Positions 9,891-42,921 of a stretch of DNA of 55,595 nt are shown here, piece by piece. Positions within the stretch are counted from its first letter, which is position 1, and the number at the start of each line of letters is the position of its first letter. The position numbers were made by a program, and so were the translations under genes. Below the pieces are notes generated by a model. The model saw nothing but the letters and a program-made list of their open reading frames with translations, was not told where the DNA came from and ran no database searches. The stretch comes from an uncultured Pseudomonadota bacterium (GTDB lineage Bacteria; Pseudomonadota; Alphaproteobacteria; Rs-D84; CASDRH01), in contig CASDRH010000029.1 of the NCBI GenBank assembly GCA_949283075.1, forward strand, positions 1 to 55,595, in the 5' to 3' direction.

Positions 9891-9912
9891 TTATAACACC
9901 TTTATAATAAAA

Positions 9913-11470: not shown

Positions 11471-11500
11471 TTTTTATTTAATTTTATATCTTTGTATTAT

Positions 11501-11575: not shown

Positions 11576-11592
11576 TTTGTGTAAATTATTAC

Positions 11593-12096: not shown

Positions 12097-12313
12097 ATTA
12101 GATCCTTTACTATTTGATAATTTTCTAATACATCTTTTATATTTATATCTATATTTGCTTCATCTTTGATAAATATTTTTAATATATTATTGGCTAATTT
12201 ATTTACTTTTTTATCAATATCATTATATAATTCTTTTACTTTATCGTCTATTTTATTTTGTATATCTGTGATAAATTTATCGATAGCATCTTTTATTTTA
12301 TTATCAAGTTTAT

Positions 12314-22143: not shown

Positions 22144-22200
22144 TATTGCTCCTTTATCTTCATAAAATGCTTTGTATTTGTGGTATAAGTTTTACTTTAT

Positions 22201-23382
22201 TTAAAAAGTTTTATCAATAATTATTTCATAATCTTTATCGTTCAATTTCTTTACAGACTTCATATATAAAGCTTTTAATACTAGATTATTTTTAATCTTT
22301 TCAACGAAATATTTTACATAAGTAGATATTTCATCTTCTTTGTTATTTATAGATACTACATATAGGAATTTGTTATCTCCTTCATACCTGTATCCAGAAT
22401 ATGAATCCTTATCTTTATATTTTATGAAATCTTTTGAATCTAGTTCTGGGAATATTCCTTTATCTATTTTTGATATTTCTGCTTCTTCTCCTTTGTCTTT
22501 TGAAAAATCAATACCTGTGAAAATAACTTTCCCATATTTTACTAACAAATTAGACTGGAATTTACTTTCAAATTCGAATTCTTGAACATCTATTAGTAAA
22601 TCTTTATCTATTTTTTTATATTTTTTATCGTATTCTTCTTTATCTTTTTTTAAATCAGATGCTAAAAAGTATAATGAAATTGGATTGATGTTTTGCCCAT
22701 CGAACTTTAATCTTATACCATCGTTTGTAAAACCTTTTTCTTCTTCTGGTTCTGGAGGATATGGTATTACTTCTTTATAAGTTAAGAACTTTAGTTTTAT
22801 ATTTTCTCCATCTTCTTTTATATTATATTTGAATAACTCTGCTGATTGTGATGAAGGGCCATAACTTCCTCCTGGGACAAAACTAATACTGAATACCATA
22901 AGTATATTTTCTTCTTCTATATATGAATATCCGATTTCCCTTTCATTATCATAATACCATTTATGTCCTTTTAACTCTTCAAACAACCCATATTTTTCTA
23001 TCGAAGACATATCGTTTATAATGTAATCTTTATTTACATCATCTGATAAACAATAATATGGACTTTCACTTTCTATATGTTCTTTTGTTAAAATAACTTC
23101 TTCTGGGTTTGGTTTATCATTCCATCTATTATTATAGACTTGGCTATATGCATCAACAAAGCAATATGGATTTAATACTTTTCCTTTATATTTTAATATA
23201 TTGTCTTCTATTTTTAATATTTTATTTTTTAATAAATCATTTTCTATCTTTCTTGCATAATCAACAGATGTTTTTTCTGGATTTTTCAATAATACTATTA
23301 ATGTTATCATTGATAATAGTATTAAAATTATTGCGATTATAAGAAGTAAATTATTCTTGTTTGTATTATATTGTTTTTTCAT
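22201..23382 (-). CDS. Hypothetical membrane-anchored protein, paralogue family member 2
   Basis: 393 aa with an N-terminal TM helix. Contains the motifs NILKYKGKVLNPYCF and GHKWYYDNEREIGYSYIEEENILMVF. Confidence 0.6.
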   Translation of the reverse strand: MKKQYNTNKNNLLLIIAIILILLSMITLIVLLKNPEKTSVDYARKIENDLLKNKILKIEDNILKYKGKVLNPYCFVDAYSQVYNNRWNDKPNPEEVILTKEHIESESPYYCLSDDVNKDYIINDMSSIEKYGLFEELKGHKWYYDNEREIGYSYIEEENILMVFSISFVPGGSYGPSSQSAELFKYNIKEDGENIKLKFLTYKEVIPYPPEPEEEKGFTNDGIRLKFDGQNINPISLYFLASDLKKDKEEYDKKYKKIDKDLLIDVQEFEFESKFQSNLLVKYGKVIFTGIDFSKDKGEEAEISKIDKGIFPELDSKDFIKYKDKDSYSGYRYEGDNKFLYVVSINNKEDEISTYVKYFVEKIKNNLVLKALYMKSVKKLNDKDYEIIIDKTF

Positions 23383-23397
23383 TTTATGCCCATTTTT

Positions 23398-24060
23398 TTA
23401 ATTTATTGTCCATTGAATTGGGGAGCTTAAATCTCCTGTATCTTGCGAATTTGCTGTTTTAGTATCTTTTAAAATTAACTCTATTTTATCATTTGATATT
23501 TTTATTTCGTATATTTTTAGAGAAGCAAATGAACCAACTGACACGTGATTTATTTCAATTAGCATAAATTTATTTTCATCTTCACTATATGAATATCCGA
23601 TTTCTCTTATATTATCATAATACCAAAAATATCCTTCTGTTTCTGGGAAAATATCGTTATTATCTTCTTCTGATAAGAATTTAATTTCATATATTGAATC
23701 TAATTTGTCTTCTTCATTTTTTAATAAATTCTTACACTCATCCATATCAGCACTGGTTATTATTTTTGTATTTTCTAAATTGTCTATAAAACAATAAGGT
23801 TTTATAATCCAATTGTGATATTGTAATAACGGAATTAAATCATTATTATTTGTTGAGAAAATATAGTAATTATCATTTTCTGATTTTTCTTCATTGTTAG
23901 ATGTTTGAATTTTTGTAATATCTTCTGATACCTCTGTATTTTTACTTAATTTTGTATTAAAAATCTTACTATCTTTTAATGTATACAATGATATTACTAA
24001 CAAGATGAATATGCTTATTAATATAAATATTTTTGACTTTTTATTTTTGAATAACTTCAT
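23398..24060 (-). CDS. Hypothetical membrane-anchored protein, paralogue family member 3
   Basis: 220 aa with an N-terminal TM helix. Contains the motifs LLQYHNWIIKPYCF and GYFWYYDNIREIGYSYSEDENKFMLI. Confidence 0.6.
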   Translation of the reverse strand: MKLFKNKKSKIFILISIFILLVISLYTLKDSKIFNTKLSKNTEVSEDITKIQTSNNEEKSENDNYYIFSTNNNDLIPLLQYHNWIIKPYCFIDNLENTKIITSADMDECKNLLKNEEDKLDSIYEIKFLSEEDNNDIFPETEGYFWYYDNIREIGYSYSEDENKFMLIEINHVSVGSFASLKIYEIKISNDKIELILKDTKTANSQDTGDLSSPIQWTIN

Positions 24061-24598: not shown

Positions 24599-25357
24599 AT
24601 GGAAAATATACAAAATAATAATTCTGAATATTCTTATAAAGGTTATAAAATTCCTGAAAAATTTATTGATAGTAAATCTGGCAAAATAAGGATTGATGCT
24701 TTAATTAAGTCATATTTAGAATTAGAAAAGATGTTAAGTAATCGTGAAAAATATTATAATAAATTTGTGAATGATAGCTCTGATAAATCAGATAATATTT
24801 TAAGCAAATCTTTGCAAGATGAAGATGATAATGTAATTGATCCAAATGATATTGTTATAAAATTAAATTCTGGAATTGTTCAAAATTGTGTAAAAATGAA
24901 TCAAGAGTTATTGCATAATGGTTTTAATATTGAACAGATTCAAAAGGTTTATGAAATAATTGAAGATTGGGTTTTACCAGAATTTATTGATTTTGCTAAA
25001 CAAATGTATTTTGATAACGAAATTGAAAAGTTAAATAATACTTTTGGTGGTGCTGATAAATTTGAATTAGTTGCAAATCAATTATACAAATGGGCTGTTA
25101 AAAATTTAAGTTCTGATGTTTTGAAAATTCTTGCAAGTTCTTATAATGGTATTGTTGCTATGTATTATATGATGATTAAATCTGAACCTATGGTTGATAC
25201 AATACTTGCAGATATTGACGGGAACTTATATACAGAAGATAATTTAAAACAAATGATGAAAAATCCTAAATATTGGTTGCAAAAAGACCCTGATTTCATT
25301 CGTCAGGTATCAGATGGTTTTAAACAATTATATGGTAATCAGGCTTATTTAAAATAA
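24599..25357 (+). CDS. Phage scaffolding protein (T7 gp9-like)
   Basis: 252 aa, acidic and helical, located upstream of the capsid gene. The C-terminal GGADKFELV...LKQMMKNPKYW..DPDFIRQV resembles, from memory, the conserved C-terminal part of T7-group scaffolds. Confidence 0.6.
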   Translation: MENIQNNNSEYSYKGYKIPEKFIDSKSGKIRIDALIKSYLELEKMLSNREKYYNKFVNDSSDKSDNILSKSLQDEDDNVIDPNDIVIKLNSGIVQNCVKMNQELLHNGFNIEQIQKVYEIIEDWVLPEFIDFAKQMYFDNEIEKLNNTFGGADKFELVANQLYKWAVKNLSSDVLKILASSYNGIVAMYYMMIKSEPMVDTILADIDGNLYTEDNLKQMMKNPKYWLQKDPDFIRQVSDGFKQLYGNQAYLK

Positions 25358-26515: not shown

Positions 26516-26647
26516 ATAAAGATTTAGGAGTTTTATTTTAAAGTTATTAAAGGCGTTTTCGTTCTTTTTTATAAATTGAATATTAACACAACCTTTGATT
26601 ATTTATTTAATTTTGAAATTTTATATTTAATTATGAAAGGAATTTTA

Positions 26648-27472
26648 ATGTCTGAAAATAGTATTGAAAATGCTTTTATAAAGCAATTTGAAGCTGAGGT
26701 CCATTTGGCTTATCAACAAACTGGAACTAAATTACGTCAGACTGTTAGAAATAAATCTAATGTTGTTGGCGCTACAACTGTGTTCCAAAAAGTTGGTAGA
26801 GGAACTGCTTCTACTAAACAAAGAAATCAACCTATTACTACAATGAATCTTGATTACACCTCTGTTGAATGTAATTTACAAGATTATTATGCCGGTGATT
26901 GGATTGATGCTTTAGACGAAATTAAAACAAATATTGATGAACGTAAAGTTATTGCTTCCGCAGGAGCTTATGCTTTGGGTCGAAAAACTGACGAGTTGAT
27001 TATTACTGAATTAGAAAAAGCAACTCAAATCATCGATGTTGCTGATTCAGGTTTAACAAAAGATAAAATTATGGCGGCTATTGAATTATTAAATGCTGCC
27101 GAAGTCCCTGATGATGGTCAACGCTTCGGTGTAGTCGGTGTTCATCAATGGAATGAATTATTAAAAATTGAGGAGTTTTCATCTGCTTCTTATGTTGGTG
27201 AAAATTATCCTTTCTTAAACGGTTTTGAAAATCGTAAATGGATGGGAATTATCTGGTTATTACATACTGGTCTGCCTTTGTCTGATACAAATCGTAGCTG
27301 CTTTATTTATCATAAGCACTCTATCGGACATGCTTGCGGTCAAGATGTAAAAACTGATATTTTCTGGAATGGAGAATGTGCGGCTTATTTTGTTTCTAAT
27401 TCTATGAGCCAAGGTTCTGCAATAATAGATCAAACTGGTATCGTTAAAATTTTATGTAAAGATACTGCTTAA
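26648..27472 (+). CDS. Phage major capsid protein (HK97 fold, T7 gp10-like class)
   Basis: 274 aa from the ATG at 26648 (AAAGGA RBS). The N-terminal FIKQFEAEVHLAYQQTGTKLRQTVR...FQKVGRG...DYYAGDWIDALDE...GRKTDELII parallels the gp10-type pattern. It sits between the scaffold and tail-adaptor genes. Confidence 0.75.
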   Translation: MSENSIENAFIKQFEAEVHLAYQQTGTKLRQTVRNKSNVVGATTVFQKVGRGTASTKQRNQPITTMNLDYTSVECNLQDYYAGDWIDALDEIKTNIDERKVIASAGAYALGRKTDELIITELEKATQIIDVADSGLTKDKIMAAIELLNAAEVPDDGQRFGVVGVHQWNELLKIEEFSSASYVGENYPFLNGFENRKWMGIIWLLHTGLPLSDTNRSCFIYHKHSIGHACGQDVKTDIFWNGECAAYFVSNSMSQGSAIIDQTGIVKILCKDTA

Positions 27473-27560: not shown

Positions 27561-27586
27561 TTAATTTTTAATTAATGGTTTTTATT

Positions 27587-28150
27587 ATGGCTTTATCTAA
27601 AATTGATTTATGTTCAAAGGCTTTGTTGAAAATCGGAGCTTTTCCAATTTCTTCTTTTGATGGTGATACTCCAGAGCAAATTATTTCTGACCACTTATAT
27701 TATGTTGTAAAACACCAGTTGTTATCTGAATATAATTGGAGTTTTGCTACAATACAGCGTGAGTTAAATATGATAAATGCTAAGCCTTTGTTTAATTTTA
27801 AATATGTATTCACTTTGCCAGAAGATGTAATTTCTGTTATAACTGCTGATAATTTATGTGGTGGTAAAATTGATTATAAAATCGTTAAAGATGAATTACA
27901 TACTAATTCTGATAATGTGCTTTTAAAATATGTGTATGATTGTCCAGAAGAATATTTTTCTTCCGACTTCATTACTCTGATTATTGAAAAATTAGCGGGT
28001 GAATTCGCTATACCTTTAACTGAAAATACTGCAAAAGCTAATTACTTTTTGAATAATGCTAATCTTTTATTATTAAAAGCTAAATCAAAAGATGGCTTAC
28101 AAAAAAAGCCTAGTTCTATTAAAAACTTTGTTTTAAGTGATGTCAGATAA
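27587..28150 (+). CDS. Tail tubular protein A / adaptor (T7 gp11-like)
   Basis: 187 aa (an alternative ATG lies at 27575). The N-terminal CSKALLKIGAFPISSFDGDTPEQ matches the gp11 pattern (xxILASIGExPVxxLEGD). The size and position are as in T7-like phages. Confidence 0.7.
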   Translation: MALSKIDLCSKALLKIGAFPISSFDGDTPEQIISDHLYYVVKHQLLSEYNWSFATIQRELNMINAKPLFNFKYVFTLPEDVISVITADNLCGGKIDYKIVKDELHTNSDNVLLKYVYDCPEEYFSSDFITLIIEKLAGEFAIPLTENTAKANYFLNNANLLLLKAKSKDGLQKKPSSIKNFVLSDVR

Positions 28151-28176: not shown

Positions 28177-30117
28177 ATGAAAAGGATTTTTATTATGGGT
28201 AAAATTACAAAGACTTCTAGTAGCTTTTCTTTCGGGGAGGTATCCCCTGATTTAGTTTCAAGAGAAGATTTGGGAACTTATGAAAAAGGGGCTATGGTTT
28301 TAGAAAATTTTGTTGTGTCTGTTATTGGCGGTATTAAACGCAGAAGTGGTTTAGAATTTTTACATAAATTATCTGGTAATGGTAGATTGATTGAATTTCA
28401 TATTGATGAGCAAAATTCTTACTGTATTGTTTTAACAAATTTGAAAATTTCTATTTTTAAAAATGGTAAATTTATTTTTAATATCCCTGCCCCTTGGATT
28501 GAAAGTGATATAAAAGATATTCAATGGGTGCAAAATGAAAATGAATTATTGTTGGTTCATTTTAAATACCCTCCTCGTATTTTGAAAATGAAGTCTGAAA
28601 ACGAATGGATGTTAAATGAATGGGATACTTTGCAAATAGGTGTTAAAAATACTTTGATGCCTTTTGCAAACTTTATAAAAACTTCTGGTATATCTTTTAC
28701 TGTTAATCGTGTTGGCGATAATTTAAGCAAAAATGCTAATATTGTTGCTAGCGATAATTTCTTTTTTAAAGAATATGTTGGTATTCATTTAAAAATTAAC
28801 AATGGATTTTTTCGTGTCACTGAATTTGTTGATGAAAAAACTATGAATTTAGAAATTATAAAAGAACCTGAAAATTTTAATCCTGTTTTTTCTTTTGAAG
28901 AACAAGTTTTTTCTCATTTAAGAGGTTATCCTAAATCAATTACTTTTTATCAAAACAGATTGATTATTGGCTGATCTCGTGATTTACCTTCAAGAATTTG
29001 GATGAGTAAAATTGGAGATTATTTTAATTTTGAACTTGGTGAAGGTTTAGATGATGATGCTATCATATTTGATATTATATCTGATAAACCTGAAATTATT
29101 CAGTCAATTTTTGCCGGTAAACATTTACAGGTTTTTACAACTGATTCTGAATGGGTTATTACTTCTTTTCCTATGACTCCTGCTAGTGTGCAGTTGAAAA
29201 AACAAACTGGAATTGGTTCAATTTCTTCTAGATACATTCCTCCAATGTTTATTGAAGGTTCGACTATGTTCATAGCAAAAAATGGGGTTGAAATTCGTGA
29301 GTTCTTATTCGGCGAAGTTGAACAGGCTTATTCTTCTTTTGACCAAACCGTTCTTTCAAAACACTTGATGCGTTTCCCTTTGGACCAAGCATACGATATT
29401 ACTAACAGAACTTTATATATACCTATGAAAGACGGCTCTATGGCTGTTTTGACTATTAATAAAGATTATGGATTGCGTGCTTGGAGTAAATTTACTACCG
29501 CAGGGAAGTTTTTATCTGTTGCTATTGTTGGGGATAAAACTTATGTAATGGTTCAGAGAAATGATGAAGTCTTTTTAGAATGGTTTAATGATAAAGTTAA
29601 TACTGATTGTTGTATAAAAATTATTGCTGATGATGATTTGAATAATAAAGATATAAATGTTAGTCATCTTAAAAATAAAGTCGTTTATGTTATAGAAGAT
29701 AATATTATTTATCCTGTTCAAAAATTATCTGATAATATTTATCATTTGAAAAATTCAGATGCTGAAAATTTAGAAATAGGTTTGCCTTATATACATACTT
29801 ATGTTCCTTTGCCTCCAATTTTTTCTGGTAATAAATCTGCTAAAAAAGTTATGTTAATAAATGTTGTATTCAGGCTTATGAATTCAAAATATCTATCTGT
29901 TGATACTGGATATGGTATTAGATTTATTCATTTGGATAAATACAATAAAAATGACTTTTTTAATCAAATCGGAAAAAATAAAACTCTTGATGTTGAGGTT
30001 AAATCTTTCGGTTGGAAGCATTCTTTTAATGAACCTGTTTTTAAAATTCAGTCCGCTGTTCCAGCGAATTTTCAAATAGTATCCGTGCAAGCAAATTATC
30101 AAATGGAATCTTTTTAA
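28177..30117 (+). pseudogene. Tail tubular protein B / nozzle (T7 gp12-like), interrupted by one in-frame TGA
   Basis: ORFs 28177-28974 and 29002-30117 are in the same frame, separated only by the TGA at 28972-28974. The sequence across the stop, YQNRLIIG*SRDLPSRIWMSKIGDYFNF, corresponds to the conserved gp12 segment RNRLxFxxG...SxxxxYFNF. Confidence 0.6.
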
Positions 30118-30577: not shown

Positions 30578-30595
30578 TTTTGAAAGGTGGTTTTT

Positions 30596-31474
30596 ATGGA
30601 TAAAAATTATTTTAATAATAAATATAAATTATCTGCTAATATTGATTGTGTTGATGATTTTGACAATTTAAATTGTATTCAAAATGAATCATTTCTTGAT
30701 GATAATGTTGTATCTGATTTTGAAAGTAAAAGCTCTTGTTCTGTGAAGTATATATGCAATGGTAATAATAAATGCTTTGATATACCTTTTAAAATCTTTC
30801 AAAAAGAGTTTATAAAAGTTTATATTGATGATGTATTATAACAATCTGGATTTGATATAATTGAAAATGAACACGGAACCGGAGTTGTATTATTTAACTT
30901 TGATATTGTTTCTGGTAGTCATTTAATTATTACTAGAGAAATGGAGTTTAAAAGAAATTATATATTTCAAACTGGTGGTTCTTTTAAAGCAGAAGAAATA
31001 AATTATGAGCTGGATTATCAAGCAAGTTATATCGCTGAATTAAATGAAGCAATGAAAAATGCTTTAATTCTTCCTAATAAAAGCGGTAATAATAATTTTA
31101 ATAATGTATTGCCTAATCCTCAAAAAGGTTGCGCTTTGGTTTGGAATGAAAACGAAGACGGCTTTGTGAATGCTGATATAGGAAATGTAAAACAATATGC
31201 TGATATGGCAGAGGATTATTATAAATTAACAGAAGATTTGCACAAAGATATTATGGATAAATTGCAAAATTCTGATAATGGCTGGATTGGAGCTTATAAC
31301 AATATTATTGAAATTTTGAAAAATCTTGGTATTGATGCTGGGAAACCAATTGACCCTAATCACTCAATGGTTATTGATTGCGGTTCTGTGAATGACAGTG
31401 CTGATGATAATGTTGATTATGGCAGTATTTCTGAACCTGCTAATGATAATGATGATTATGGGAATATAGTTTAA
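30596..31474 (+). pseudogene. Tail fibre, N-terminal (T7 gp17 tail-attachment) domain only, interrupted by one in-frame TAA
   Basis: ORFs 30587-30841 and 30941-31474 share a frame with a single TAA at 30839-30841. NGNNKCFDIPFKIFQKEFIKVYID and HLIITREMEFKRNYIFQTGGSFKAEEINYELDY parallel DGSNRDFNIPFEYLARKFVVV and ELRRVTSTTDRLVDFTDGSILRAYDLN of T7 gp17, recalled from memory. I take the ATG at 30596 as the start, after GAAAGGTGG. Confidence 0.55.
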
Positions 31475-32214
31475 TATATTTTTTTAGCTTATTTTATGGA
31501 TTTTATTATGATTTTAGATGATGTGAAAAATAGCTCACTTTCAAGTGATGTGAAAAAAAGTAATCGCAAAGTATCATTTATCAGATTTATAAAAATTTAG
31601 AATGATTTACAACAATGGAATGTTCCAGATATTCATAAAGAAATGGCAAAATGGTTAAGTAATTTATACAATAGTAAAAATAAAAAAGGTTTATTATTGG
31701 CTTTTCGTGGGTCTGGGAAATCTTCTATTGCTGGTTTGTTTGCTGCTTGGGTTTTATACAAACAAAATGATTGCAGAGTTTTGATTGTTTCTGCTGATGA
31801 GCGTTTGGCAAAAAAAATGTCTGCAAATGTTAAGAAAATTATTTCTAAACACCCTTTGATGCAGGAATTGAAACCTAAAAAAGGAGATTGGGCAACAAAT
31901 AGCTTTACTATATCTCGCAATAAAGAATTAAGAGACCCTTCCGTTATGGCTATTGGTATTTCTGGAAATATTACTGGTTCTCGCGCCGATGTGATTATTT
32001 GCGATGATGTGGAAGTTCCTAAAAATTGCAACACTTTCTTAAAACGAGAATTATTACGTGAAAAATTAAATGAATTAGAGTTCGTTATTACTCCTAATGG
32101 ATTGATTTTATATCTTGGCACTCCTCATACTTTGAAAACTATCTATAAAACAAATTAGACAAAATATATTATTTCATAAATAACTTGACAAAATAATTTT
32201 ATCGTATAATATCA

Positions 32215-32330
32215 TTGCAAAATATACAAAAACATACTTTTGTATATATTAAAGTAAATCTGACTATCCTCGAAGTTACTCCCTCCTTATTTTCTCTCCT
32301 CTATATTAACTTCGGGGACTTTTTTTATTT
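32215..32330 (+). ncRNA. Candidate small RNA 1 (ends approximate)
   Basis: TTGACA (32185-32190) and TATAAT (32205-32210) lie upstream, but the spacer is only 14 nt. One hairpin spans 32221-32250. The stem CCTCGAAGTTA (32268-32278) pairs with TAACTTCGGGG (32307-32317) around the loop CTCCCTCCTTATTTTCTCTCCTCTATAT, followed by T7. Confidence 0.35.
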
Positions 32331-32529
32331 TAAAATTCACAATTTAGAATCTTGAATGATTTTTATGATTACCGATTCTATATTTTATTAGCCAAAAATA
32401 CATTTTTTGTGCAAAAACACCTTATTTTAAATTGGAAAAAAATATTATTTTTGTCAATTTTTTAAAGCTAAAAATTACGTAAAATCAATATCTTAATACT
32501 TTTATCCTTATGCTTTTATATCAAAAATA

Positions 32530-32558
32530 TTGACTTTTTGATTTTGACTTGCTATAAA
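32530..32558 (+). promoter_or_regulatory. Candidate sigma70 promoter inside the terminase insert
   Basis: TTGACT (32530-32535), 17 nt spacer, TATAAA (32553-32558). Confidence 0.45.
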
Positions 32559-32564
32559 TCTGCC

Positions 32565-32675
32565 CATAAAGCAGGACGAAGTATTTTATATTTCTTCCTT
32601 AAACAACAGAATTTCTCTCTCCTTTCCTCCTTTTCTCCTTTTGTGTTTATGGACCTGCTTTATTTTCTTTTTTTA
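32565..32675 (+). ncRNA. Candidate small RNA 2 or cis-leader of the terminase 3' half (ends approximate)
   Basis: The stem AAGCAGG (32569-32575) pairs with CCTGCTT (32654-32660). It encloses a loop with CTTCCTT...CTCTCTCCTTTCCTCCTTTTCTCCTTTT and is followed by a T-rich tract, 34 nt before the ATG at 32709. Confidence 0.35.
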
Positions 32676-33678
32676 ATCTTATTTATTCTTTTAATTTATG
32701 GTGATGATATGAATAATTTTCTTGATGATGAAAATGATGCTTTCTTGGCTGGATTTGATGTCTTGAAAATTCCTATTATTCGTGATGGCAATCCTGTTTG
32801 GCCAGAACAATTTTCTTTGCAGAAAATTGATGATATTAAACGAAAAACTGGATTGAATAAATTTTCTTCTCAAATGATGCTGGAACCTGTTTCTATTAAT
32901 TTTGGTAGCTTTAATTTAGATGACTTAATCGTTTATAATGATGATTTAGATATAACTGAATCAAATAGTGTTGTAAATTACTATATATCAGGTAAACGAT
33001 TAAAATATTACTCTTGTTATTGGGACCCTTCTTTCGCAGGTGCTAAATCTGATGGCTCCGTTATCGCTGTGGTTTTTATTGATGAAGATTTTCATTATTA
33101 TATACACGATGTTAAATATTTGAACTTTGATACTGAACTTTATAACAACTATAATCAAGAACGTAATAAATCTGCAAAAGAACAATGCAAAGATGTTATT
33201 GATTTTATGTTGCGTTATAACTTATTTGTTTTAAATGTTGAAACAAATGGTATCGGAAAATTTTTGCCTGAACTCTTACGTGATGAAATTACTTCAAGAC
33301 GCCTTAATATATCCGTTAATGAAAAAGTAAATAAAATTTCAAAAGATATTAGAATTATTGATGCAATTAAATGTCCTCTTACATCTGGTTTTGTTCATAT
33401 TAAAAAAAATTTATTAAATACTCAACTTGGTGCAGAGTTCGAAGAATGGAATCCTATCGCTTGCAAAAATAATCAAGTTCGTGATGATGGGCTTGATGCT
33501 GTTGCTGGAGCTATTTTATCAGATGCAGTTTTGATTTCTAGGTTTAAAATTAACCCTTTGAAACATAAAGGTTTTCGCATTTATAAAGTAAAAAATGATT
33601 TTAATGTTTAATAATTAAGGATTTATGATATAATTGTCCAGTATCTTAATTTAACAATATAATAATGGGGATAATATT

Positions 33679-34185
33679 ATGAATCTAAATCGTTTTAAAC
33701 AAACTAATTTATATAAAGGTCGTTCTATGATTGAAATGCTTGGCGTTTTGGCTTTGATGGGCATTTTGACTGCTGCAACTTTCCAAATGTATAATTATGC
33801 TAGCAATAAATCAAAAGCTATGAATATGGAAGACCAGATTAATCAAACTGCTGAAGATGTTAAAACTTTATTCCTTGGCAGAAATTGGGATGGCTTCCAA
33901 AGAATTTCTGATAGAACTTCTTCTGAAAAATATTTTGAAGATAAAAAAATTAAATTACGCGATGCTTGGGGTAATCCTATTTATATTTTAAGAACTGAAA
34001 CAAAAGACCAAAAATTAGCAAGATTTTATATCCAATTAAATGATGTTGAAGCTGCTGATTGTGTTAATTTAGGTAAACGTATTAATCCTACTTTATTACG
34101 TGTTAACAATTTAGATGTTAAACCTGGCCAAATTCCTTTATGTCAGAAAGATAAAAAGAATGTTATGCAATTCTTTTATAGATAA
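33679..34185 (+). CDS. Type IV pilin-like protein (prepilin-type N-terminal domain)
   Basis: 168 aa. KG/RSMIEMLGVLALMGILTAA has Glu at +5 and a hydrophobic helix. A C-terminal Cys pair (CVNLGK...PLCQ) fits a pilin D-region. Confidence 0.65.
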   Translation: MNLNRFKQTNLYKGRSMIEMLGVLALMGILTAATFQMYNYASNKSKAMNMEDQINQTAEDVKTLFLGRNWDGFQRISDRTSSEKYFEDKKIKLRDAWGNPIYILRTETKDQKLARFYIQLNDVEAADCVNLGKRINPTLLRVNNLDVKPGQIPLCQKDKKNVMQFFYR

Positions 34186-34245: not shown

Positions 34246-34385
34246 TTTCGTGTTTATATTAATCTTTTTTGTGGTATAATGTATTTTAATAAATTTAAAA
34301 TATTTTTGTTATATATTTATACTTGTTTTTAATCTGATTTATAAATATTTACAATAACAAGATATGTAAAATAAAGGAATTGAAT

Positions 34386-35342
34386 ATGTTATATAATTTT
34401 AAAAAATCTGCGCGTATTAGTTTACTTACTTTTGCTTGCATTATTTCTGCTTGCTCTTCTGATAATGTTTGTCAAACTAATGAATTGAAAAATCTTAATG
34501 ATGATGAATTAAAATGTATTGATTGCTTAAAAAAAGAACCTGAACAAAAACAGAAAAAACATAAGCAGAAAAATAAAAAGAGAGCTGTAAAAGCTGAAAA
34601 AAAAGTTGAAAAGAAAAAAAATCGTAAAAATAAACAATTAGATAAAATTGAAAAAAAACAAAATAAAGATAACATTAAAAATGATGAAAAAAATAATGTA
34701 TCTGAATTAAATTGGTTTAATCAATTTGATTATAACTTCAATAAAGTTTTTATTAGCTTTAATACCTTTGATGAAAATGTTATTTATAAAAATAATATGA
34801 TTGCTATGGGTGGTAAATCTGATGAAGAGGAATTGAATAATCAAATATCTAATGATGATATTTACAAAACATCTCAAGCAATATCTGATAATATAAATTA
34901 TGATAATGATAATACAACTAATAGCTCTGATAAAAAACCTTTGTTGAATTTTAATATATCTGCAAATGTAGATGATGGCGAAGGAAATACTAAAAGCTAT
35001 GGTATGAAAGTTTCTGGCGATGTTCAAAATAAAGGGGATAAAAAAGCTATCGGTATCAATGTTGTTGGCGGAGAAGATGGTGAACAAAAACCTTTGATGA
35101 ATGTTAAATTTTCTGGTGGTGCTGCTGATGGTAAAGATATAGGCGATGAATCAAAAGGTGCTATGGAAGTTGAAGTCGGACCAATTAAAATGCAGGTCGG
35201 TGTTAATGTGAACACTGAAAATGAAGGGCAACCTACTATAAACCTTGATTGGAATTTAAAAGCTGATGATGAAAATATCTCTTCCGGTAAAGCTAAAGGT
35301 GAAATTAATTTAAAAAATTTAGATGAAGATAATAAACAATAA
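34386..35342 (+). CDS. Hypothetical lipoprotein with a K-rich segment
   Basis: ATG at 34386 after AAAGGA. Signal peptide with lipobox ISAC, and a lysine-rich low-complexity block. Confidence 0.55.
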   Translation: MLYNFKKSARISLLTFACIISACSSDNVCQTNELKNLNDDELKCIDCLKKEPEQKQKKHKQKNKKRAVKAEKKVEKKKNRKNKQLDKIEKKQNKDNIKNDEKNNVSELNWFNQFDYNFNKVFISFNTFDENVIYKNNMIAMGGKSDEEELNNQISNDDIYKTSQAISDNINYDNDNTTNSSDKKPLLNFNISANVDDGEGNTKSYGMKVSGDVQNKGDKKAIGINVVGGEDGEQKPLMNVKFSGGAADGKDIGDESKGAMEVEVGPIKMQVGVNVNTENEGQPTINLDWNLKADDENISSGKAKGEINLKNLDEDNKQ

Positions 35343-35369
35343 TTATTTTGTTAAAAAATTGGTGTAAAT

Positions 35370-36887
35370 ATGGATTTTAAAAAGTATTTTGTTTTTATTT
35401 CTTGTATTGCTATTTCTGCTTGTGCAGAGTTTAATAAAGACTTTCAACAAGATAATTTTAACAGCAATACTTGCAATGGTGCAGATTGCCAAAATCAAAA
35501 TATAAATAATAATATTAATATAAATACTGAACAGAATAATATTGATTCAAGTGCTGATATCGCTTCTGTTGAACCAAATAATGTTGATGTTGTAGAAACA
35601 ACTTTAATTGAAACTGATTTAGAAGAAAAAGCTAAACGTATTAAAGATGAAGAGTTGGAAAAAATTACTAACATATTCAACAGAGATAAAGAAATAAAAC
35701 AACAAGCAGAAGAAAATTACAAAAATGAATTGGCAGATTTGCAAAAAGAAAAAGATAAAATGCAATTACAAGTTGATGAATATCAACGTCAAATAGATGA
35801 GGTTATTAAAAAAGAATATCCTAATGATCCTAAAAAGGCTTTTGCTGAACGCCAAAGTATGCAAGAAAAATTAAATGAATTTAAACAAAGCAAATTAGAT
35901 GAATTAGAAGCTAAAAAAAGAAATGCTGATGATAAATTTAATTCTGTAATTGAACAAATTGCTAAAATTGAACAAGATGCTATTCAGAATTATAAAGCTG
36001 CTTTGGAAAATGTTGATAAAATGCTTCAAGAAGGTAATCTTAATCAACAATATTCAAATACTTCTGATACTAATAATATTAATCAAAATGTTAATAATAC
36101 CGATGATAATTTAAAACCTGTTGATAAAGAGATTAAATTAGTTAAAGAAGAATCTTTTAATTTGTCTGACAATAGCTCTGATAGATGGCTTAAATTACAA
36201 ATACCTGAATGTAATGGTGTTGTTATGCTTCCAAATAATGATACAACTGTTCAACGTTTGGAATATGAAAATGGTAATGTAAATTATGTCGGATTGCTAG
36301 GCTTTGGTTTGTATTCTATACATATCAGCAAATATGATGGGCCTGCTACATTAGATAAAATCAGTCAAAGTTTTACAGAAGATTTACAACAATTTGATGT
36401 AATCGATGAAAAAAGTATTGTTTACAAAGATACTAAATCTAATGGTATTCGTTGGCGTTATTTGAATATGACTCTACAAAATTATGACTTCGGTGATGGT
36501 AATGTTAAACCTCATTACTTCGTTAAACGTGTCGCTGTTAAGGGTAATTTGAAAATTAAATTAGAATATTTCGGTATATTAAAAAGAGGATTTACAGAAC
36601 CTTTAGTTGACTTGTTTATGGATTCTTTCGATTTTAATGATGTCGGAGCTGATAAAAATATAGTTATTAAGGCTATGCTTGAAGATAATGAGAATTATAA
36701 ACAAATGAATTCTTTAAATGATGAAGAGGAAGAAAGCGCTGATGACAATAATCAAGAGGCTGATAATAAATCATTAGATGATAATGAAACTGAAACAAGC
36801 AATAATTTGAATAATTCTACTAATAATTCTGATGTAAATGTGGATAATTCAAAGCCTATGAACATAATTCCTGAATTTAAGAATTAA
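35370..36887 (+). CDS. Hypothetical lipoprotein with a coiled-coil and a globular C-terminal domain
   Basis: 505 aa. Lipobox ISAC, a long E/K/Q coiled-coil, and an acidic N-rich tail. Confidence 0.55.
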   Translation: MDFKKYFVFISCIAISACAEFNKDFQQDNFNSNTCNGADCQNQNINNNININTEQNNIDSSADIASVEPNNVDVVETTLIETDLEEKAKRIKDEELEKITNIFNRDKEIKQQAEENYKNELADLQKEKDKMQLQVDEYQRQIDEVIKKEYPNDPKKAFAERQSMQEKLNEFKQSKLDELEAKKRNADDKFNSVIEQIAKIEQDAIQNYKAALENVDKMLQEGNLNQQYSNTSDTNNINQNVNNTDDNLKPVDKEIKLVKEESFNLSDNSSDRWLKLQIPECNGVVMLPNNDTTVQRLEYENGNVNYVGLLGFGLYSIHISKYDGPATLDKISQSFTEDLQQFDVIDEKSIVYKDTKSNGIRWRYLNMTLQNYDFGDGNVKPHYFVKRVAVKGNLKIKLEYFGILKRGFTEPLVDLFMDSFDFNDVGADKNIVIKAMLEDNENYKQMNSLNDEEEESADDNNQEADNKSLDDNETETSNNLNNSTNNSDVNVDNSKPMNIIPEFKN

Positions 36888-37043
36888 GTTTTTCTATATT
36901 TTTCATATAATTAGATGTTATATTTCATAAAATTTATATTAATTTTAGACAAAATTTGTTTTTTGTATTTATTTTATTGACAAAATATATTTTTATGTTT
37001 ATTTTTTATTTGTAAGTTAATTTTTATAAATAGGAAAAAAATT

Positions 37044-38006
37044 ATGCAAAAATTTAGTAAAGTTTTTAAAGTTTTATTATCTGTTGGTATAGGATTGATG
37101 GTTGGTTCTGTATTCGTTTATAAATTGAACTCTGTATCAATTCAACAAAGCAGTAAAATTGAACCTGATTTAAAAGAAAAAATATATGGTAAAAGTTCAA
37201 ATAAAACTGTTAAAGAAAAGATAGTTGCTAATAAACAATACGAAAATAATGTTAAAATAACTAGAAATAATATTAAAAATGTTGCTTATACTGAAACTGC
37301 TGTTGTTTCTAAACCAAAAGTTATTCGTATTATACGTCGTGAATTTGTTAAAGATAATTATCAACCTGTTGCTAAATCAGAACAATATCTTCCTGAAAAT
37401 AGAAGTTTGTCTTATTATCGTCCTAATTATGATGATGTTAGAAAAATTCAACAAAATGCTGATACTTATGATTATTTGAGAAGTCAGCATAGCCCTGAAT
37501 ATTATCAAAATGAACAAACTGTTAAAGAATTAGAAGACAGAGGATACCTTTCTGTAAATGATTTAGCTTTTATCAAAAACGATGATGATATAAAAGTTTT
37601 TTATGAATACAAGGTTGTTTCTCCTGATACTTTAAGAAAATTAAAAGCTAATAACTATTATAAAAATAATAATGTTAATACTAAAGTTATTAGCAAGCCT
37701 AGAAAAGTTATAAATGCTCCCAATAACTGGGATGTTTTTGATGGTAATTTTGTTTTAAGTGCTGATAATATCGGTGATTTAAAAAGCAATACTGTTATAA
37801 CTGGTAATTTATATATTATGAATTTTAATTGGGTTAAATTACCTGAAAATATAAAAGTTATGGGTAATGTTTATGTTCAAAATTCTCAAGGCGTATTGTT
37901 TAGATATAACACTGTTATTGAAGGTAGCGTCTTTATGAAAGGAAATTCTAGCTTGAAAGCTATGTCTGAAAATGTTAAAATTAAAGGACAAGTGTTTTTA
38001 GGTTAA
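37044..38006 (+). CDS. Hypothetical membrane-anchored protein
   Basis: 320 aa with an N-terminal TM helix. The C-terminal end has short beta-strand repeats (GNLYI, GNVYV, GSVFM, GQVFL). Confidence 0.5.
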   Translation: MQKFSKVFKVLLSVGIGLMVGSVFVYKLNSVSIQQSSKIEPDLKEKIYGKSSNKTVKEKIVANKQYENNVKITRNNIKNVAYTETAVVSKPKVIRIIRREFVKDNYQPVAKSEQYLPENRSLSYYRPNYDDVRKIQQNADTYDYLRSQHSPEYYQNEQTVKELEDRGYLSVNDLAFIKNDDDIKVFYEYKVVSPDTLRKLKANNYYKNNNVNTKVISKPRKVINAPNNWDVFDGNFVLSADNIGDLKSNTVITGNLYIMNFNWVKLPENIKVMGNVYVQNSQGVLFRYNTVIEGSVFMKGNSSLKAMSENVKIKGQVFLG

Positions 38007-38526: not shown

Positions 38527-39043
38527 AAATATACCCCTATAAATATTTATATTCCGTATGTTATTAGGTATTTTTTCTTTTTTCAAGTATTTATAATAAA
38601 AAACATTAGAAATTATATCTCTATAATATCTAATGTTTTTCTTGTGATAATGCATTAATATCAGTCTCTTAATCCTGATATAATTATTACAAATATCAAT
38701 AAAACGAGAATCCACAAACAAATCATATATGCCTTAGCAATGAAATGTATAACTGATAACACTTGCATAAATATAATAACTCCTTAAATTTTAATTTTTT
38801 ATTAATCTTATCCCTTATATACTTTTTATCAAGTAATTATTTTATTTTTAGACTAAAATTATTATTTTTGTCTTTTTTTATAAAATTTTACATATTTTAT
38901 TATGTATTGCTCGCTTATTATCTTATTTTTTGATTTTTTTTAATTATTTTTTAAAAACTTCTGTATATGTGAGGATTTTTGTGATATAATTAAAATCATT
39001 GGAGAAAAACTGATTTTTTAAAGATTTCGATTTGGGGGAGATA

Positions 39044-41035
39044 ATGGGAATCGGATTTAATACCGTTGGTAATTTTTCAAAAATTTCAACAGGTTTCGGA
39101 GATAAAAATCCTGGAAATGCAGTAAATATTACTATTATGGGCGTTGGCGGTGCCGGCGGAAATATCATAAAATTTTTAATGGATAAAAGAATCAGTGGCG
39201 TGAATTTTATTTATGCTAATACTGATTTGCAGGCTTTAAGTGCGAATCCTTCTTCTAATATTATTCAGTTGGGTAAAAAGACTACTGGCGGGTTTGGTGC
39301 CGGTTCTGACCCAAATGTTGGTGAAAAATCTGCTATGGAAGCAACTGAGGAAATTAAAGCTTCTTTAAATGGTACAAATATGCTTATCTTAATTGCTGGT
39401 CTTGGTGGAGGTACTGGAACTGGAGCAAGTCCTGTAATTGCTAAAATTGCAAAAGAAATGGGTATTTTAGTATTATCTTTTGCAGTATTGCCTTTTGATT
39501 TTGAAGGAGACAGAAAAAATGTTGCTGAAAACTGGTTGCAAAACTTATTAGTTTCAAGCGATTCATTAATCAGTTTATCAAATCAAAAATTGTTGAATTT
39601 AGATGATTCAAATTTACGTTTTGATTTGTCTTTGGAAGTTGTCCACGACATAGTTTATCAAGGTGTTAATAGTATTGTTAGTTTGTTAAATCAAAATGAA
39701 CTTATTAATAGAGACTTTTCCGATATCGTCCAAGTTATGAAAGATAAAGGTTTAAGTTTAATAAGCTCTGGTCGTGCAAGTAATAATCAAAATGCTTCTC
39801 GTGCTGTATTGGCAACTGAACAAGCTTTGAATAATCCTTTGTTATCTGATGTTTCTATACACGGAGCAAAGGGTATGATTGTTACTATCTGTGCTAAACA
39901 AGAATCTTTAAAGACTATCGAAGTTAGCGAGGTTATGAACCGTATCACAAAAGAAATGAATTCGCATAATACAAAGGCGAATATTTTATTAGGTGTTTCT
40001 TTTAGCGATGATTATTCTGATGATTTAATTGTTTCTATTATTGCTACTGGTTTAGTGGGTAGAAAAAATGTTAATGCAGATAATGAAACTTTTAATAAAT
40101 TTGATTATTTAAATTCTAATCAAGTTGTTTCTGGATTTGGCCAATCTATAAGTTTGAATGATGAATCTGATGCTTTCTTTAATGATATGGCTAAAAATCA
40201 AGATGTTGTAGAAAGCAATGTTGCTGTTGATAAAAGTTCTTTAAATGACGATAGTAAATTTGATGATTTAAATGATGATATTAAAACAGATAATGATGAG
40301 ATTAATTCAAAAGATGATGATATCGTTGAAATAAAATCTGATAAAAAAGATTTTGATTTTTCTGGATTGAATGATTTCTTATCTGGTGATGCTTTTGGAC
40401 AAGCTAAAAATAATATAGATGACAATTCAAAATCAAAAATAGAATTTGATTCATTTGATTCTGATTTTGGTTTTAGTGATATGAATGATAATATTGATAA
40501 TTCAGATTTCGGTTTGGAAGATGAATATTCTATGGCTGAAAATAAAAAAGGATTTTTTCAATCTTTCTTCGGTCGTAATGATAAATTAAAAAAAGATAAT
40601 AAAGAAAATATTGTTAAAAATTATTTATCAGATAATCAAAAACAAAATAATGATAGTAAGTTAGATGGCAATTTTTCAAATGTTAAAAGCTATTCTGATT
40701 TAGATTTCTTAAACGAATTAAAAGATATAAATGGTTTTGAAAATTCAGATGCTAATAATAAATCTGATGAAAATAAAGATGAAATCAAAATTTCATTTTT
40801 AAATTCTTCTATCGGTGAAGATGATGAATTCTTTTCTGATATAAATTTTGATTCTGATTTTAGTGATGCTGAAAAAGAAATTATCAAAAATGATGTAGGT
40901 AATAATACAAATAATGTTGATGATAATGTTACTTATATTTCTGAAATGGATAATAATAAAAAAGAAGCTCCGAAATATTATACTAAACAAGTTGATATAT
41001 TTGAATTGATTGAAAGTATTACTGGAACAAAATAA
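39044..41035 (+). CDS. ftsZ: Cell division protein FtsZ with a ~320-aa acidic N/D/S-rich C-terminal linker
   Basis: GVGGAGGN, GGFGAGSDPNVG, AGLGGGTGTGASPVIAKIAKE and NRDFSDIVQVM (T7 loop). The ATG at 39044 is preceded by GGGGGAG. Confidence 0.9.
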   Translation: MGIGFNTVGNFSKISTGFGDKNPGNAVNITIMGVGGAGGNIIKFLMDKRISGVNFIYANTDLQALSANPSSNIIQLGKKTTGGFGAGSDPNVGEKSAMEATEEIKASLNGTNMLILIAGLGGGTGTGASPVIAKIAKEMGILVLSFAVLPFDFEGDRKNVAENWLQNLLVSSDSLISLSNQKLLNLDDSNLRFDLSLEVVHDIVYQGVNSIVSLLNQNELINRDFSDIVQVMKDKGLSLISSGRASNNQNASRAVLATEQALNNPLLSDVSIHGAKGMIVTICAKQESLKTIEVSEVMNRITKEMNSHNTKANILLGVSFSDDYSDDLIVSIIATGLVGRKNVNADNETFNKFDYLNSNQVVSGFGQSISLNDESDAFFNDMAKNQDVVESNVAVDKSSLNDDSKFDDLNDDIKTDNDEINSKDDDIVEIKSDKKDFDFSGLNDFLSGDAFGQAKNNIDDNSKSKIEFDSFDSDFGFSDMNDNIDNSDFGLEDEYSMAENKKGFFQSFFGRNDKLKKDNKENIVKNYLSDNQKQNNDSKLDGNFSNVKSYSDLDFLNELKDINGFENSDANNKSDENKDEIKISFLNSSIGEDDEFFSDINFDSDFSDAEKEIIKNDVGNNTNNVDDNVTYISEMDNNKKEAPKYYTKQVDIFELIESITGTK

Positions 41036-41157: not shown

Positions 41158-42921
41158 ATGTTTATTATGAATATGTTTATGAATTCTAAAATTATCATTG
41201 ATGATGATTTAAAAAAATCTGTTAATAATATCAAAAAACGTTTTAAAAAAGCTTTTGAACATAGACAAAAATGGGATAATTTATGGCTTGATTGCTATCG
41301 TTATACTATGCCTAATGAAGCTGATTTGTTTTATAAATCTTCTGATAATTCTGATGTAAATAATAATTATAATTTATACGATTCAACCGCTATGGAAGCT
41401 GTTGAAAACTTATCTGCAAATATGTTATCTCAAATTACTCCTGCTTGGAGCAATTGGTTTTCTTTATCTATTGCTGATAATTCTGCTTTGGATAATATGC
41501 CTTTGAATGAAAAAACTGATATAGAATTACAGATTTTAAATAATGAAAAAATTATTCAAAGCCATTTTAATAAATCAAACTTCTATATCGAATTACATCA
41601 ATGCTATATCGACTTGATTACTGTCGGAACTGCTTGCCTATTGTTTGAAGAAAATAAAATTGGCGAAGAATCTGCTTTTAAATTTACAAGTATTCCTATG
41701 TCAGAAATTGCTTTGGAAGAAAACTTTAATGGTAAATTAGATACTATTTTTCGTAGGTCTGCTATTTCTGTTAAAAATTTGATTGATAAATTTACTGATA
41801 TATCTTTATCTGATGAATTGAAAAAATTTGTTGATAATAATCCTAATCATAAAGTTAATATCATTGAATGTGTTTATCCAAATGATAATGAATTTGGAAC
41901 AAATGGTTATAAATATATATCTTTTGTTGATGATGAATTTAATACTTTTTCAAAAGATGATAATCCTATCGTTTTAAAGCAAGGTTTGTTTCCTGTTAAC
42001 CCTTTCATTTGCTTTCGTTGGTTGAAAACTCCTGGGGAAATTTATGGACGCTCCCCTGTTATGAAAGCTTTACCAGATATAAAAACTGCAAATAAAGTTG
42101 TTGAATTGATTTTGAAAAATGCAAGTATTGCTGTTTCCGGTATTTGGCAAGCAGAAGATGATGGTGTCATTAATTTAGATAATATTAAGCTTTCTCCTGG
42201 AACTATTATTCCAAAAGCTGTTGGTTCGGCTGGTTTAAGTCCTTTGCAAACATCTTGTGATTTTGATGTTTCTCAACTGGTCTTAAATGATTTGCGTAAT
42301 AATATCAAAAAATGTTTGCTAGCTGATAATATTTTAGCTATGCAAAATAACAATAAAATGACTGCAACAGAAATAAATGAACGTGTCTTTGAAATGGATA
42401 AAGTGTTAGGAGCTACTTTTGGTCGTTTGCAATTCGAGCTTTTAAATCCAATAATTAAAAGAGCTGTCCAGATTTTAAAAAGACGTGGTGAAATAGATGA
42501 TATAGCTATTGATGGATTTAATGTTTCTGTTTCTTACTCTTCCCCAATTGCAAAAGCTGAAAAAAAGCGTGAGGCTGCAAATATTATTGCTTGGATTCAA
42601 AGTATATCTAATTTAGGTAATGATGCTATCGATTATGTTGATAAAAAAGCTGTCGTTAAATTATTAAATGATTTGTTAGGCATTCCAGATAACTTAATTG
42701 TTAAAGATAATGATGTTATATCTAATGATGTATCCGATGATATTAATAAATGTTTAGATGATATTTTAAATCAAAATAATAATGAAATTAATGAACAGTT
42801 AGAAAACAATTTAAGCAATGAAATTGTGAATAATGATATTTCTGAAAATAATTCAAATAATGATGAACAGATTAACAATAAAAATGATGAGGTTAAAAAT
42901 GATGAACAAAATGTCGAATAG
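41158..42921 (+). CDS. Phage portal / head-to-tail connector protein (T7 gp8-like)
   Basis: 587 aa (alternative starts at 41167, 41173 and 41179). WDNLWLDCYRYTMP, YGRSPVMKALPDIKTANKV and MTATEINERVFEMDKVLGATFGRLQFELLNPIIKR parallel gp8 segments, recalled from memory. The C-terminal N/D/E-rich tail is host-like low complexity. Confidence 0.8.
   Translation: MFIMNMFMNSKIIIDDDLKKSVNNIKKRFKKAFEHRQKWDNLWLDCYRYTMPNEADLFYKSSDNSDVNNNYNLYDSTAMEAVENLSANMLSQITPAWSNWFSLSIADNSALDNMPLNEKTDIELQILNNEKIIQSHFNKSNFYIELHQCYIDLITVGTACLLFEENKIGEESAFKFTSIPMSEIALEENFNGKLDTIFRRSAISVKNLIDKFTDISLSDELKKFVDNNPNHKVNIIECVYPNDNEFGTNGYKYISFVDDEFNTFSKDDNPIVLKQGLFPVNPFICFRWLKTPGEIYGRSPVMKALPDIKTANKVVELILKNASIAVSGIWQAEDDGVINLDNIKLSPGTIIPKAVGSAGLSPLQTSCDFDVSQLVLNDLRNNIKKCLLADNILAMQNNNKMTATEINERVFEMDKVLGATFGRLQFELLNPIIKRAVQILKRRGEIDDIAIDGFNVSVSYSSPIAKAEKKREAANIIAWIQSISNLGNDAIDYVDKKAVVKLLNDLLGIPDNLIVKDNDVISNDVSDDINKCLDDILNQNNNEINEQLENNLSNEIVNNDISENNSNNDEQINNKNDEVKNDEQNVE

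Follow-up and report, generated by a model that had tools for sequence, protein, structure and literature searches.

In phage T7 the large terminase (TerL), known as gp19 or DNA maturase B (PHROG 38; PDB 4bij), is a single polypeptide that carries both an ATPase and a nuclease domain. Essential packaging ATPase/nuclease genes that are interrupted near their domain boundaries do exist, the herpesvirus UL15 being a two-exon gene and some phage TerL genes carrying group I introns or inteins, but there the pieces are reunited in the RNA or in the protein. In the infectious Parabacteroides phage phiPDS1 the two TerL domains were annotated as two separate coding sequences (CDS), the authors leaving open an artefact of assembly or genetic code (PMC10773633). 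This phage is the sole precedent that we found, and our search of the literature returned no description of a conserved split TerL. Here we analyse a T7-type TerL that lies in two pieces, which we call terL-N and terL-C, on a 55,595-nucleotide (nt) contig of an uncultured alphaproteobacterium (CASDRH010000029.1, assembly GCA_949283075.1), the whole of which is referred to below as the window.

The likeness to gp19 extends over both pieces. A profile of the family matches T7 gp19 across residues 15-215 (E 7e-39), onto which the N-terminal half falls, the C-terminal half is RNase H-like with D/E/D motifs, and the neighbourhood, with genes for portal, scaffold, capsid and tail tubes A and B, is likewise that of T7. 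What differs is that two genes stand in place of one polypeptide, in a chromosomal alphaproteobacterial family. The locus shows none of the features by which intron- and intein-interrupted terminases are rejoined, and its halves can lie kilobases apart; phiPDS1, for its part, is a phage of another type with another host, for which neither conserved RNA genes between the halves nor a comparison of age or selection has been reported. Comparison of the sequence with its relatives leads us to conclude that the locus probably encodes an old, evolutionarily maintained two-gene large terminase, neither intron-containing nor a fresh or simple pseudogene. That the two halves still cooperate in DNA packaging is a view that we hold only tentatively.

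A large terminase in two reading frames

The features at the break are as follows.

31496-31600, plus strand: 5' end of terL-N, its first 34 codons, in the same frame as 31643-32158 and ending at an in-frame TAG (31598-31600)
31643-32158, plus strand: terL-N, the ATPase half of a T7-type large terminase (phrog_38, terminase large subunit, profile positions 297-455, E 5e-42; Pfam Terminase_6N and ResIII)
32699-32703, plus strand: GGTGA ribosome-binding site of terL-C, 5 nt upstream of the ATG at 32709
32709-33611, plus strand: terL-C, the RNase H-like nuclease half (phrog_38, profile positions 468-701, E 8e-32; motifs WDPSF, ETNGIGK and DDGLDAV)

An earlier note on this DNA, made without database searches, had described a T7-type TerL split directly after the ATPase coupling motif, and sequence, open reading frames (ORFs) and homology together bear this out. 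The stop codon at 32156-32158 is preceded by ...NGLILYLGTPHTLKTIYKTN, the ATPase part terminating ...LGTPHTLKTIYKTN-TAG, and homology restarts at the ATG at 32709 (MNNFLDDENDAFLAGFDVLKIPII...), just past the GGTGA box, and continues to 33611. As the note also had it, the frame changes between the halves ((start-1) mod 3 being 1 in terL-N and 2 in terL-C), and no coding sequence has been lost, because the count of residues at the junction (KTN plus MNNFLDDENDA) is within the range of intact proteins. Alignment with 12 uninterrupted homologues of ~495 amino acids (aa), a comparison that the note had suggested, places the break in a short variable linker between the two domains, between TIY and FL.GF.

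Both domains of a T7-type TerL are recognizable on either side of that linker. The gp19-like ASCE ATPase of terL-N has its Walker A (GSGKS), Walker B (VIICDDVE) and coupling (LGTPHT) motifs, and the acidic motifs WDPS, ETNG and DDGLD of the RNase H-like nuclease in terL-C are conserved in alignment with homologues; the match of terL-C to PF22530 (Terminase-T7_RNaseH-like) scores 23.5 bits, under the cut-off of 27. The domains are not joined in one polypeptide: they are separate ORFs in the window, in nine contigs from other strains, in one contig from IMG/VR (L085) and in ten sister species. Two things had escaped the earlier note. It took 31496-32158 as a single ORF, which in this strain contains the in-frame TAG at 31598-31600, and it called the 550 bp between the halves non-coding, whereas two conserved, significantly structured RNA units lie inside.

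Conservation, selection and history of the split

Exact-protein look-ups brought up nine contigs of the window species in other metagenomes, 98-99% identical in nucleotide sequence. All have the gap of ~550 bp and a terL-C ORF of 300 aa; in three of them (L001, L004 and L007) every structural gene is intact, including a terL-N of 215-216 aa. A scan of species-representative genomes returned 27 loci at 34-43% identity, and among these genomes no relative of the window species closer than 43% was found. The halves are non-contiguous in ten of the 27 (L010-L018 and L022), which come from gut, rumen and insect-associated Alphaproteobacteria or "Rickettsiales" metagenome-assembled genomes (MAGs). 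All ten sister loci have terL-C as an intact ORF of ~291-298 aa that starts M..ED..FL.G[FY]D.LKIPVIENG, and the six that reach terL-N have it as an intact ORF of ~200 aa that ends ...GTPHT.DTIYK[VI] before its stop codon; in sister species and window alike, the break falls at one and the same residue.

Where a sister locus holds both halves (L010-L012, L014, L016 and L022), 3-9 kb separate the two, and ftsZ and the portal gene lie in this interval on the same strand, joined in L012 by tRNA-Phe; the other four (L013, L015, L017 and L018) cover the ftsZ, portal and terL-C side only. The order in sister species is scaffold, capsid, tube A, tube B, x, terL-N, small-RNA (sRNA) genes in the low-GC loci, tRNA-Phe in some, ftsZ, portal, terL-C, x and mipZ. 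TerL is contiguous in the remaining 17 of the 27 loci and in 78 of 80 loci from IMG/VR, where one further locus ends ahead of the C half and L085 has terL-N, a 270-bp spacer with one RNA gene bearing a CU-rich loop, and then terL-C. The split is present in at least 11 other species-level lineages besides that of the window, and among split lineages the TerL halves are only 35-70% identical.

Calculated by the Nei-Gojobori method, the ratio of non-synonymous to synonymous substitution (dN/dS) between sister species is 0.03-0.13 for terL-N and 0.09-0.16 for terL-C, and within the window species it is 0.04-0.11 for both halves; the Walker A and B, coupling and D/E/D nuclease motifs are kept throughout the split lineages. 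By these measures both halves are under strong purifying selection, and the ratios together with the retained motifs therefore rule out neutral drift since the split. A two-piece gene, which the earlier note had offered as one of its options, is the option that fits: the break is common to at least 12 lineages, with both halves open in them.

Neighbour-joining (NJ) trees were built for the portal, for each TerL half and for the two halves concatenated; in them the split lineages form one clade nested among intact-TerL relatives, which are its outgroups. Bootstrapping of the concatenate recovers this clade in 90 of 100 replicates, and in 94 of 100 the subclade whose halves are separated by ftsZ and portal. 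Neither the window nor L085 belongs to that subclade; the two form a grade in 68 replicates and a pair in 29. In these two earliest-branching lineages the halves are adjacent and only one or more CU-loop RNA genes lie between them, for which reason we think that the split probably arose once, when an sRNA gene was inserted in the flexible linker that joins the domains. In the simplest history, an sRNA gene complete with promoter, CU-loop hairpin and terminator would have entered the TerL linker; the sRNA would then have been duplicated, giving the two units of the window and of low-GC sister species; and the terL-C block would later have been translocated behind the portal gene, with tRNA-Phe, ftsZ and the portal gene thereafter between the halves. 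This ordering of insertion, duplication and translocation is what the NJ trees of short proteins suggest.

Putative small-RNA genes between the halves

The 550-bp segment divides into the following parts.

32185-32212, plus strand: promoter-like site of sRNA unit 1, TTGACA-16-TAATAT (10 of 12 matches; such hexamers are common in AT-rich DNA and weak alone)
32221-32336, plus strand: putative sRNA unit 1, with a 5' hairpin, a stem (32267-32278 / 32307-32318), a CU-rich loop and a U-tract
32337-32529, no strand: variable AT-rich spacer between the RNA units, with no conserved structure and with polymorphic sites at 32401-32513
32530-32558, plus strand: promoter-like site of sRNA unit 2, TTGACT-17-TATAAA (its TTGACTTTTT... 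box is also upstream of unit 2 in sister species)
32560-32682, plus strand: putative sRNA unit 2, with an outer stem (32566-32575 / 32654-32663), inner stems and a U-tract (inverted repeat I24)

The second of these promoter-like sites had been proposed in the earlier note as a means of expressing the nuclease half separately. It is present and conserved in sister species, but it belongs first to an sRNA gene that ends in a terminator shortly before terL-C, into which it is possibly also a source of read-through transcription.

In unit 1 a 12-bp stem closes a 28-nt unpaired CU-rich loop (ACUCCCUCCUUAUUUUCUCUCCUCUAUAU), and unit 2 exposes a CU-rich loop of 27 nt containing UCUCUCCUUUCCUCCUUUUCUCCU. 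Against shuffled sequences the plus strand folds with z of -5.3 for unit 1 and -4.5 for unit 2, and the minus strand with about -2 (unit 1, -2.05). Homologues of unit 1 lie downstream of terL-N in six genome loci (L010-L014 and L016), and nine metagenome contigs retrieved with the 19-mer of its loop contain it too; it is ~190 nt past terL-N in every case that has upstream sequence. The loop is invariant in 13 of 13 sequences, and in its closing helix 6 of 11 pairs show compensatory changes, with 96.8% of cells paired and the observed covariation reached by none of 500 shuffles. For unit 2, a 24-nt loop core is invariant in 11 sequences on three unrelated stems (window, L085 and the sister clade). 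Variation among the nine strain contigs follows the same division, unit 1 having one substitution and unit 2 none, only an indel in a T-run at 32667, while, of the 16 sites that vary in the 550-bp segment, 11 fall in the 229 nt between the units (32331-32559).

A covariance model built on unit 1 scores 70.7 bits in the window and matches only the window and the low-GC sister clade, with nothing in the intact-TerL outgroups; its weak detection of unit 2 (E 0.002-0.07) suggests that the two units may be paralogues. No Rfam 15 family reaches E<=10 over either unit in the window, L011 or L012. Between species unit 2 is found in either orientation and at a variable distance from unit 1 (L010 1821-1937 on the minus strand, L055, L064, L073, L077 and L076), and so behaves as an independent gene. 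Weak opposite-strand matches to the unit-1 model (E 0.03-0.09) also recur just upstream of unit 1 (on the minus strand at L011 3066-3172, L014 3315-3421 and L010 1309-1418, and in others); these may mark one more hairpin element, or may be spurious matches to AT-rich palindromes.

Several other identities for the segment were considered and rejected. As dispersed repeats the units are excluded, these two being the only CU-rich loops of the kind in the 55.6-kb window. For an origin of the RNAs in phages, neither loop motif has an exact match in IMG/VR, where L085 has a unit-2-like copy with one mismatch. The search for marks of a mobile element, among them the target-site duplication that the earlier note had wished to see checked, turned up weak AT-rich inverted repeats (27 nt, 70%) and no target-site duplication beyond weak AT-rich matches. 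An open frame from TTG 32538, which would extend terL-C at its N-terminus, is not coding, because the T-run indel at 32667 shifts it among strains.

Both loops contain, within their unpaired stretch of 27-28 nt, the sequence CCUCCUU(A), which we take to be the anti-Shine-Dalgarno (anti-SD) sequence of the 16S rRNA 3' end. By predicted duplex energy the ftsZ leader (39009-39055 in the window) ranks first among 56 ORFs of the window and between first and fifth in nine sister loci, a ranking that may reflect a strong GA-rich Shine-Dalgarno (SD) sequence and that comes from related loci; the translation-initiation regions of ftsZ are unusually GA-rich (GGGGGAG, GGAGAGAG). Alphaproteobacteria have a group of anti-SD sRNAs, alpha-r14, 'cuckoo', CcsR and NfeR1, with CCUCCUCCC loops. 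The spacer RNAs resemble this group as short transcripts in tandem copies, with the C/U-rich anti-SD motif in hairpin loops, promoter-like boxes and U-tract terminators, all predicted; they differ from it in loops that are much longer (~28 nt) and almost invariant, and in matching no Rfam model. There may also be a likeness to DicF, a prophage sRNA that blocks ftsZ translation: the spacer sRNAs adjoin ftsZ in sister species, and the ftsZ leader is their best predicted pairing partner. No Rfam match to DicF itself was obtained for the spacer RNAs. Taken as a whole, the spacer RNAs resemble independent regulatory sRNAs with anti-SD-like single-stranded loops, whose targets may include such leaders.

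Alternative explanations

We consider it very improbable that the 550 bp is a self-splicing group I or II intron, intact or degenerate, that is spliced out to restore one TerL frame. The precise break, the different frames of the halves and the introns of phage and herpesvirus TerL genes would suit such an element, and the 550 bp taken together fold better than shuffled sequence (z -3.5), but this structure is fully explained by two promoter-hairpin-terminator units with a poorly conserved spacer between them. The Rfam scan that the earlier note had proposed, run over 31900-32900 at E<=10, found no group I or II core or any other intron family, and the whole window at the gathering threshold yielded its four tRNAs only; nor does the spacer hold an ORF of >=50 aa, as looked for with a group II intron in mind. 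Nothing is conserved at the would-be splice sites, U 32156 and G 32703 or 32706, through which the note had envisaged a splice. Exons of a cis-spliced intron would be contiguous apart from it in all carriers, whereas in ten sister species the C half stands as a separate ORF beside the portal gene, the N half, where present, lies kilobases upstream with ftsZ and the portal gene intervening, and the spacer of L085 is a different one of 270 bp. A recoding or joining device that unites the halves, whether stop reassignment with ribosomal bypassing, trans-splicing or a split intein, strikes us as hardly credible. In-frame stops in two module genes had first suggested it, yet the three in-frame stops are three different codons, point mutations of the TGG, GGA and CAA seen in other strains; host genes end in all three stop codons, a TAA follows seven codons past TAG 32156, and no suppressor tRNA was found in the window. 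As for an intein, the N half ends 2-3 residues past TIY and the C half starts ~10 before FL.GF, with no extra domains and no intein-sized extension at either junction.

The terminase might instead have been destroyed by junk or mobile DNA inside a cryptic prophage that is falling apart, leaving a mere insertional pseudogene whose two pieces drift. This idea draws on real damage in this and other strains as well as on the lack of any remaining replication or integrase genes. Where the TAG at 31598 stands, homologues have a conserved Trp; L001-L004, L007 and L009 read TGG there, and TAG is confined to the window, L005 and L006. These last three share three nonsense point mutations, TGG>TAG in terL-N, GGA>TGA at 28972 in tube B and CAA>TAA at 30839 in the gene at 30587, all absent from L001, L004 and L007. 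L002 and L003 show a separate, independent lesion: a +A at 31552, within seven consecutive A, shifts the frame at the 5' end of terL-N. The 171-aa ORF from ATG 31643 is unaffected by either the TAG or the frameshift, and the first ~45 residues of terL-N may be dispensable, or the site a mutational hot spot. The three recent mutations suggest that this strain's copy is being lost: the copy in the window is probably no longer fully functional, although the species and clade maintain the genes, and the element seems to be on its way out of the sublineage that unites the window with L005 and L006. As an account of the lineage, a pseudogene, which the earlier note had named for the case of no spliced reads, no intron core and orthologues with unrelated junk at the site or no 3' half, is nonetheless quite unlikely. 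Lineages as divergent as those above share the split with both ORFs intact wherever recovered, their catalytic motifs are kept at dN/dS of 0.03-0.16, in some strains of the window species no structural gene is broken, and the inserted DNA consists of conserved, functional-looking RNA genes, with no terminal inverted repeats of note.

Some points do weigh against a maintained, working two-gene terminase. From the shared nonsense mutations and the frameshift it follows that selection is relaxed in at least some present-day strains. In the window no promoter separates terL-C from the unit-2 terminator right ahead of it, and only read-through would transcribe it. The trees were made from short proteins by neighbour-joining, with the window on a long branch, and the whole account rests on metagenome-assembled DNA. 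The domains of T4 gp17, expressed separately, are not known to reconstitute packaging in vitro, and a working split motor is therefore non-trivial. Purifying selection, finally, is evidence that each half is useful, not proof of joint packaging. The last two points, and the fact that the halves can be far apart in different transcription units, would equally suit halves selected for separate exapted host roles, as a stand-alone ATPase and an RNase H-like nuclease in defence or DNA metabolism, with no packaging motor. We find this unlikely: the halves always co-occur with a complete and equally conserved set of capsid, scaffold, portal and tail-tube genes, terL-C stays beside either the portal gene or terL-N, and the report of two TerL CDS in the lytic phage phiPDS1 (PMC10773633) indicates that a split enzyme can be compatible with packaging.

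A T7-like structural module among housekeeping genes

The window is bacterial chromosome, AT-rich at ~27% GC, with a ribosomal-protein/EF-G operon at 0.3-10 kb and four tRNAs, birA, pgk, PBP1A, ftsZ and mipZ elsewhere. Pfam and PHROG matches identify a T7-like structural module at 24.6-33.6 kb, made up of scaffold, major capsid protein, tail tubes A and B, two small genes and the large terminase. Ahead of the terminase and beyond it lie the following.

24599-25357, plus strand: scaffold gene (Pfam/PHROG matches)
26576-27472, plus strand: major capsid protein gene (Pfam/PHROG matches)
27575-28150, plus strand: tail tube A gene (Pfam/PHROG matches)
28177-30117, plus strand: tail tube B gene, interrupted by TGA at 28972-28974; intact, with 640 aa, in L001, L004 and L007
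30134-30577, plus strand: small gene within the T7-like structural module
30587-31474, plus strand: gene interrupted by TAA at 30839-30841; intact, with 283-292 aa, in L001, L004 and L007
38178-38253, plus strand: tRNA-Phe
39032/39044-41035, plus strand: ftsZ (Tubulin and FtsZ_C domains)
41158-42921, plus strand: T7-type portal gene (Head-tail_con, E 4e-121)
43138-43983, minus strand: mipZ (MipZ, E 7e-78)

The portal gene stands between ftsZ and mipZ, 7.5 kb from the rest of the module and apart from the capsid genes, and tRNA-Phe and ftsZ are embedded in phage-derived DNA; this mosaic is syntenic across species (L010-L018 and L022). Right behind terL-C, at 33679-34185, is a gene for a 168-aa protein with a type IV prepilin-like N-terminus (G-RSMIE, then a hydrophobic helix) and no Pfam or PHROG match, followed by three genes that span 34380-38006. 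On the minus strand at 20413-24060, between tRNA-Thr and the scaffold gene, three successive ORFs (576, 393 and 220 aa), also without a Pfam or PHROG match, are kept in the strain contigs.

The window has no integrase, replication or lysogeny genes, and the genes that flank the module are housekeeping genes. Here the chromosome carries phage-like structural and packaging genes without a replication, integration or lysogeny module, with birA, pgk, ftsZ, mipZ and PBP1A as neighbours and with synteny to ftsZ and mipZ across species. Gene transfer agents (GTAs) such as RcGTA (see PMC7947584, PMC9254644, PMC6821227) likewise consist of phage-derived chromosomal genes for heads, tails and packaging, lack functions for replication and integration, are inherited vertically in Alphaproteobacteria and have their genes partly scattered over several loci. 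RcGTA, however, is HK97/siphovirus-like and has an intact TerL, whereas the module here is T7/podovirus-like; of a T7-like GTA we found no description in the literature. That its structural and packaging genes are the only phage genes, interleaved with tRNA-Phe, ftsZ and mipZ, and that TerLs of isolated phages are only ~27% identical to this one, against ~3,500 chromosomal homologues of which the best are 41-47% identical, suggests that the cluster is a domesticated, GTA-like particle element.

More distant Alphaproteobacteria have compact versions of ~10 kb between host genes, made up of structural and lysis genes only. A 310-kb MAG contig (L165) has at 1428-12400 a LexA-like S24 repressor, portal, Bbp19, scaffold, capsid, tubes, TerL and Hydrolase_2; in Curvivirga (L084, 1566-12700) the cluster includes Hydrolase_2 and GTA_holin_3TM; and in Magnetospira QH-2 (L083) a compact T7-like cluster lies among host genes. 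Many such compact T7-like clusters are listed in IMG/VR as 'proviruses' of 12-22 kb.

Discussion

On the reading preferred here the ATPase domain (terL-N) and the nuclease domain (terL-C) are encoded and translated separately, each from its own start codon to its own stop codon and terL-C from a visible ribosome-binding site. If the two genes do make a packaging motor, their products would probably bind to each other at the portal without a covalent link. The nuclease half appears to carry the usual portal-docking C-terminus, and in the derived clade its gene directly follows that of the portal. A more far-reaching picture, which we regard as speculative and on balance doubtful, is that the sRNA insertion turned a single-chain motor into a working two-subunit terminase within a vertically inherited, podovirus-type GTA-like system around ftsZ, carried by a clade of gut and rumen Alphaproteobacteria, and that the sRNAs tie the particles it would produce to ftsZ and strong-SD translation in the manner of DicF.

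What is probably new here is the conjunction of a conserved two-gene terminase with sRNA genes at its break, inside a probable domesticated element of podovirus type. Large terminases are regarded as obligate two-domain single chains, and communication between the domains is central to current packaging models; a natural, long-selected split would be a ready system in which to ask whether the covalent linkage is needed. The spacer itself contributes a new and very strongly conserved pair of putative sRNAs outside the Rfam families. For annotation, the case implies that "broken" terminases should not automatically be taken for pseudogenes or introns. And for the Alphaproteobacteria that carry it, which apparently have no described GTA of this kind, the locus may represent a new class of phage element turned to host use, T7-like, composed of structural genes only and interleaved with the genes of cell division.

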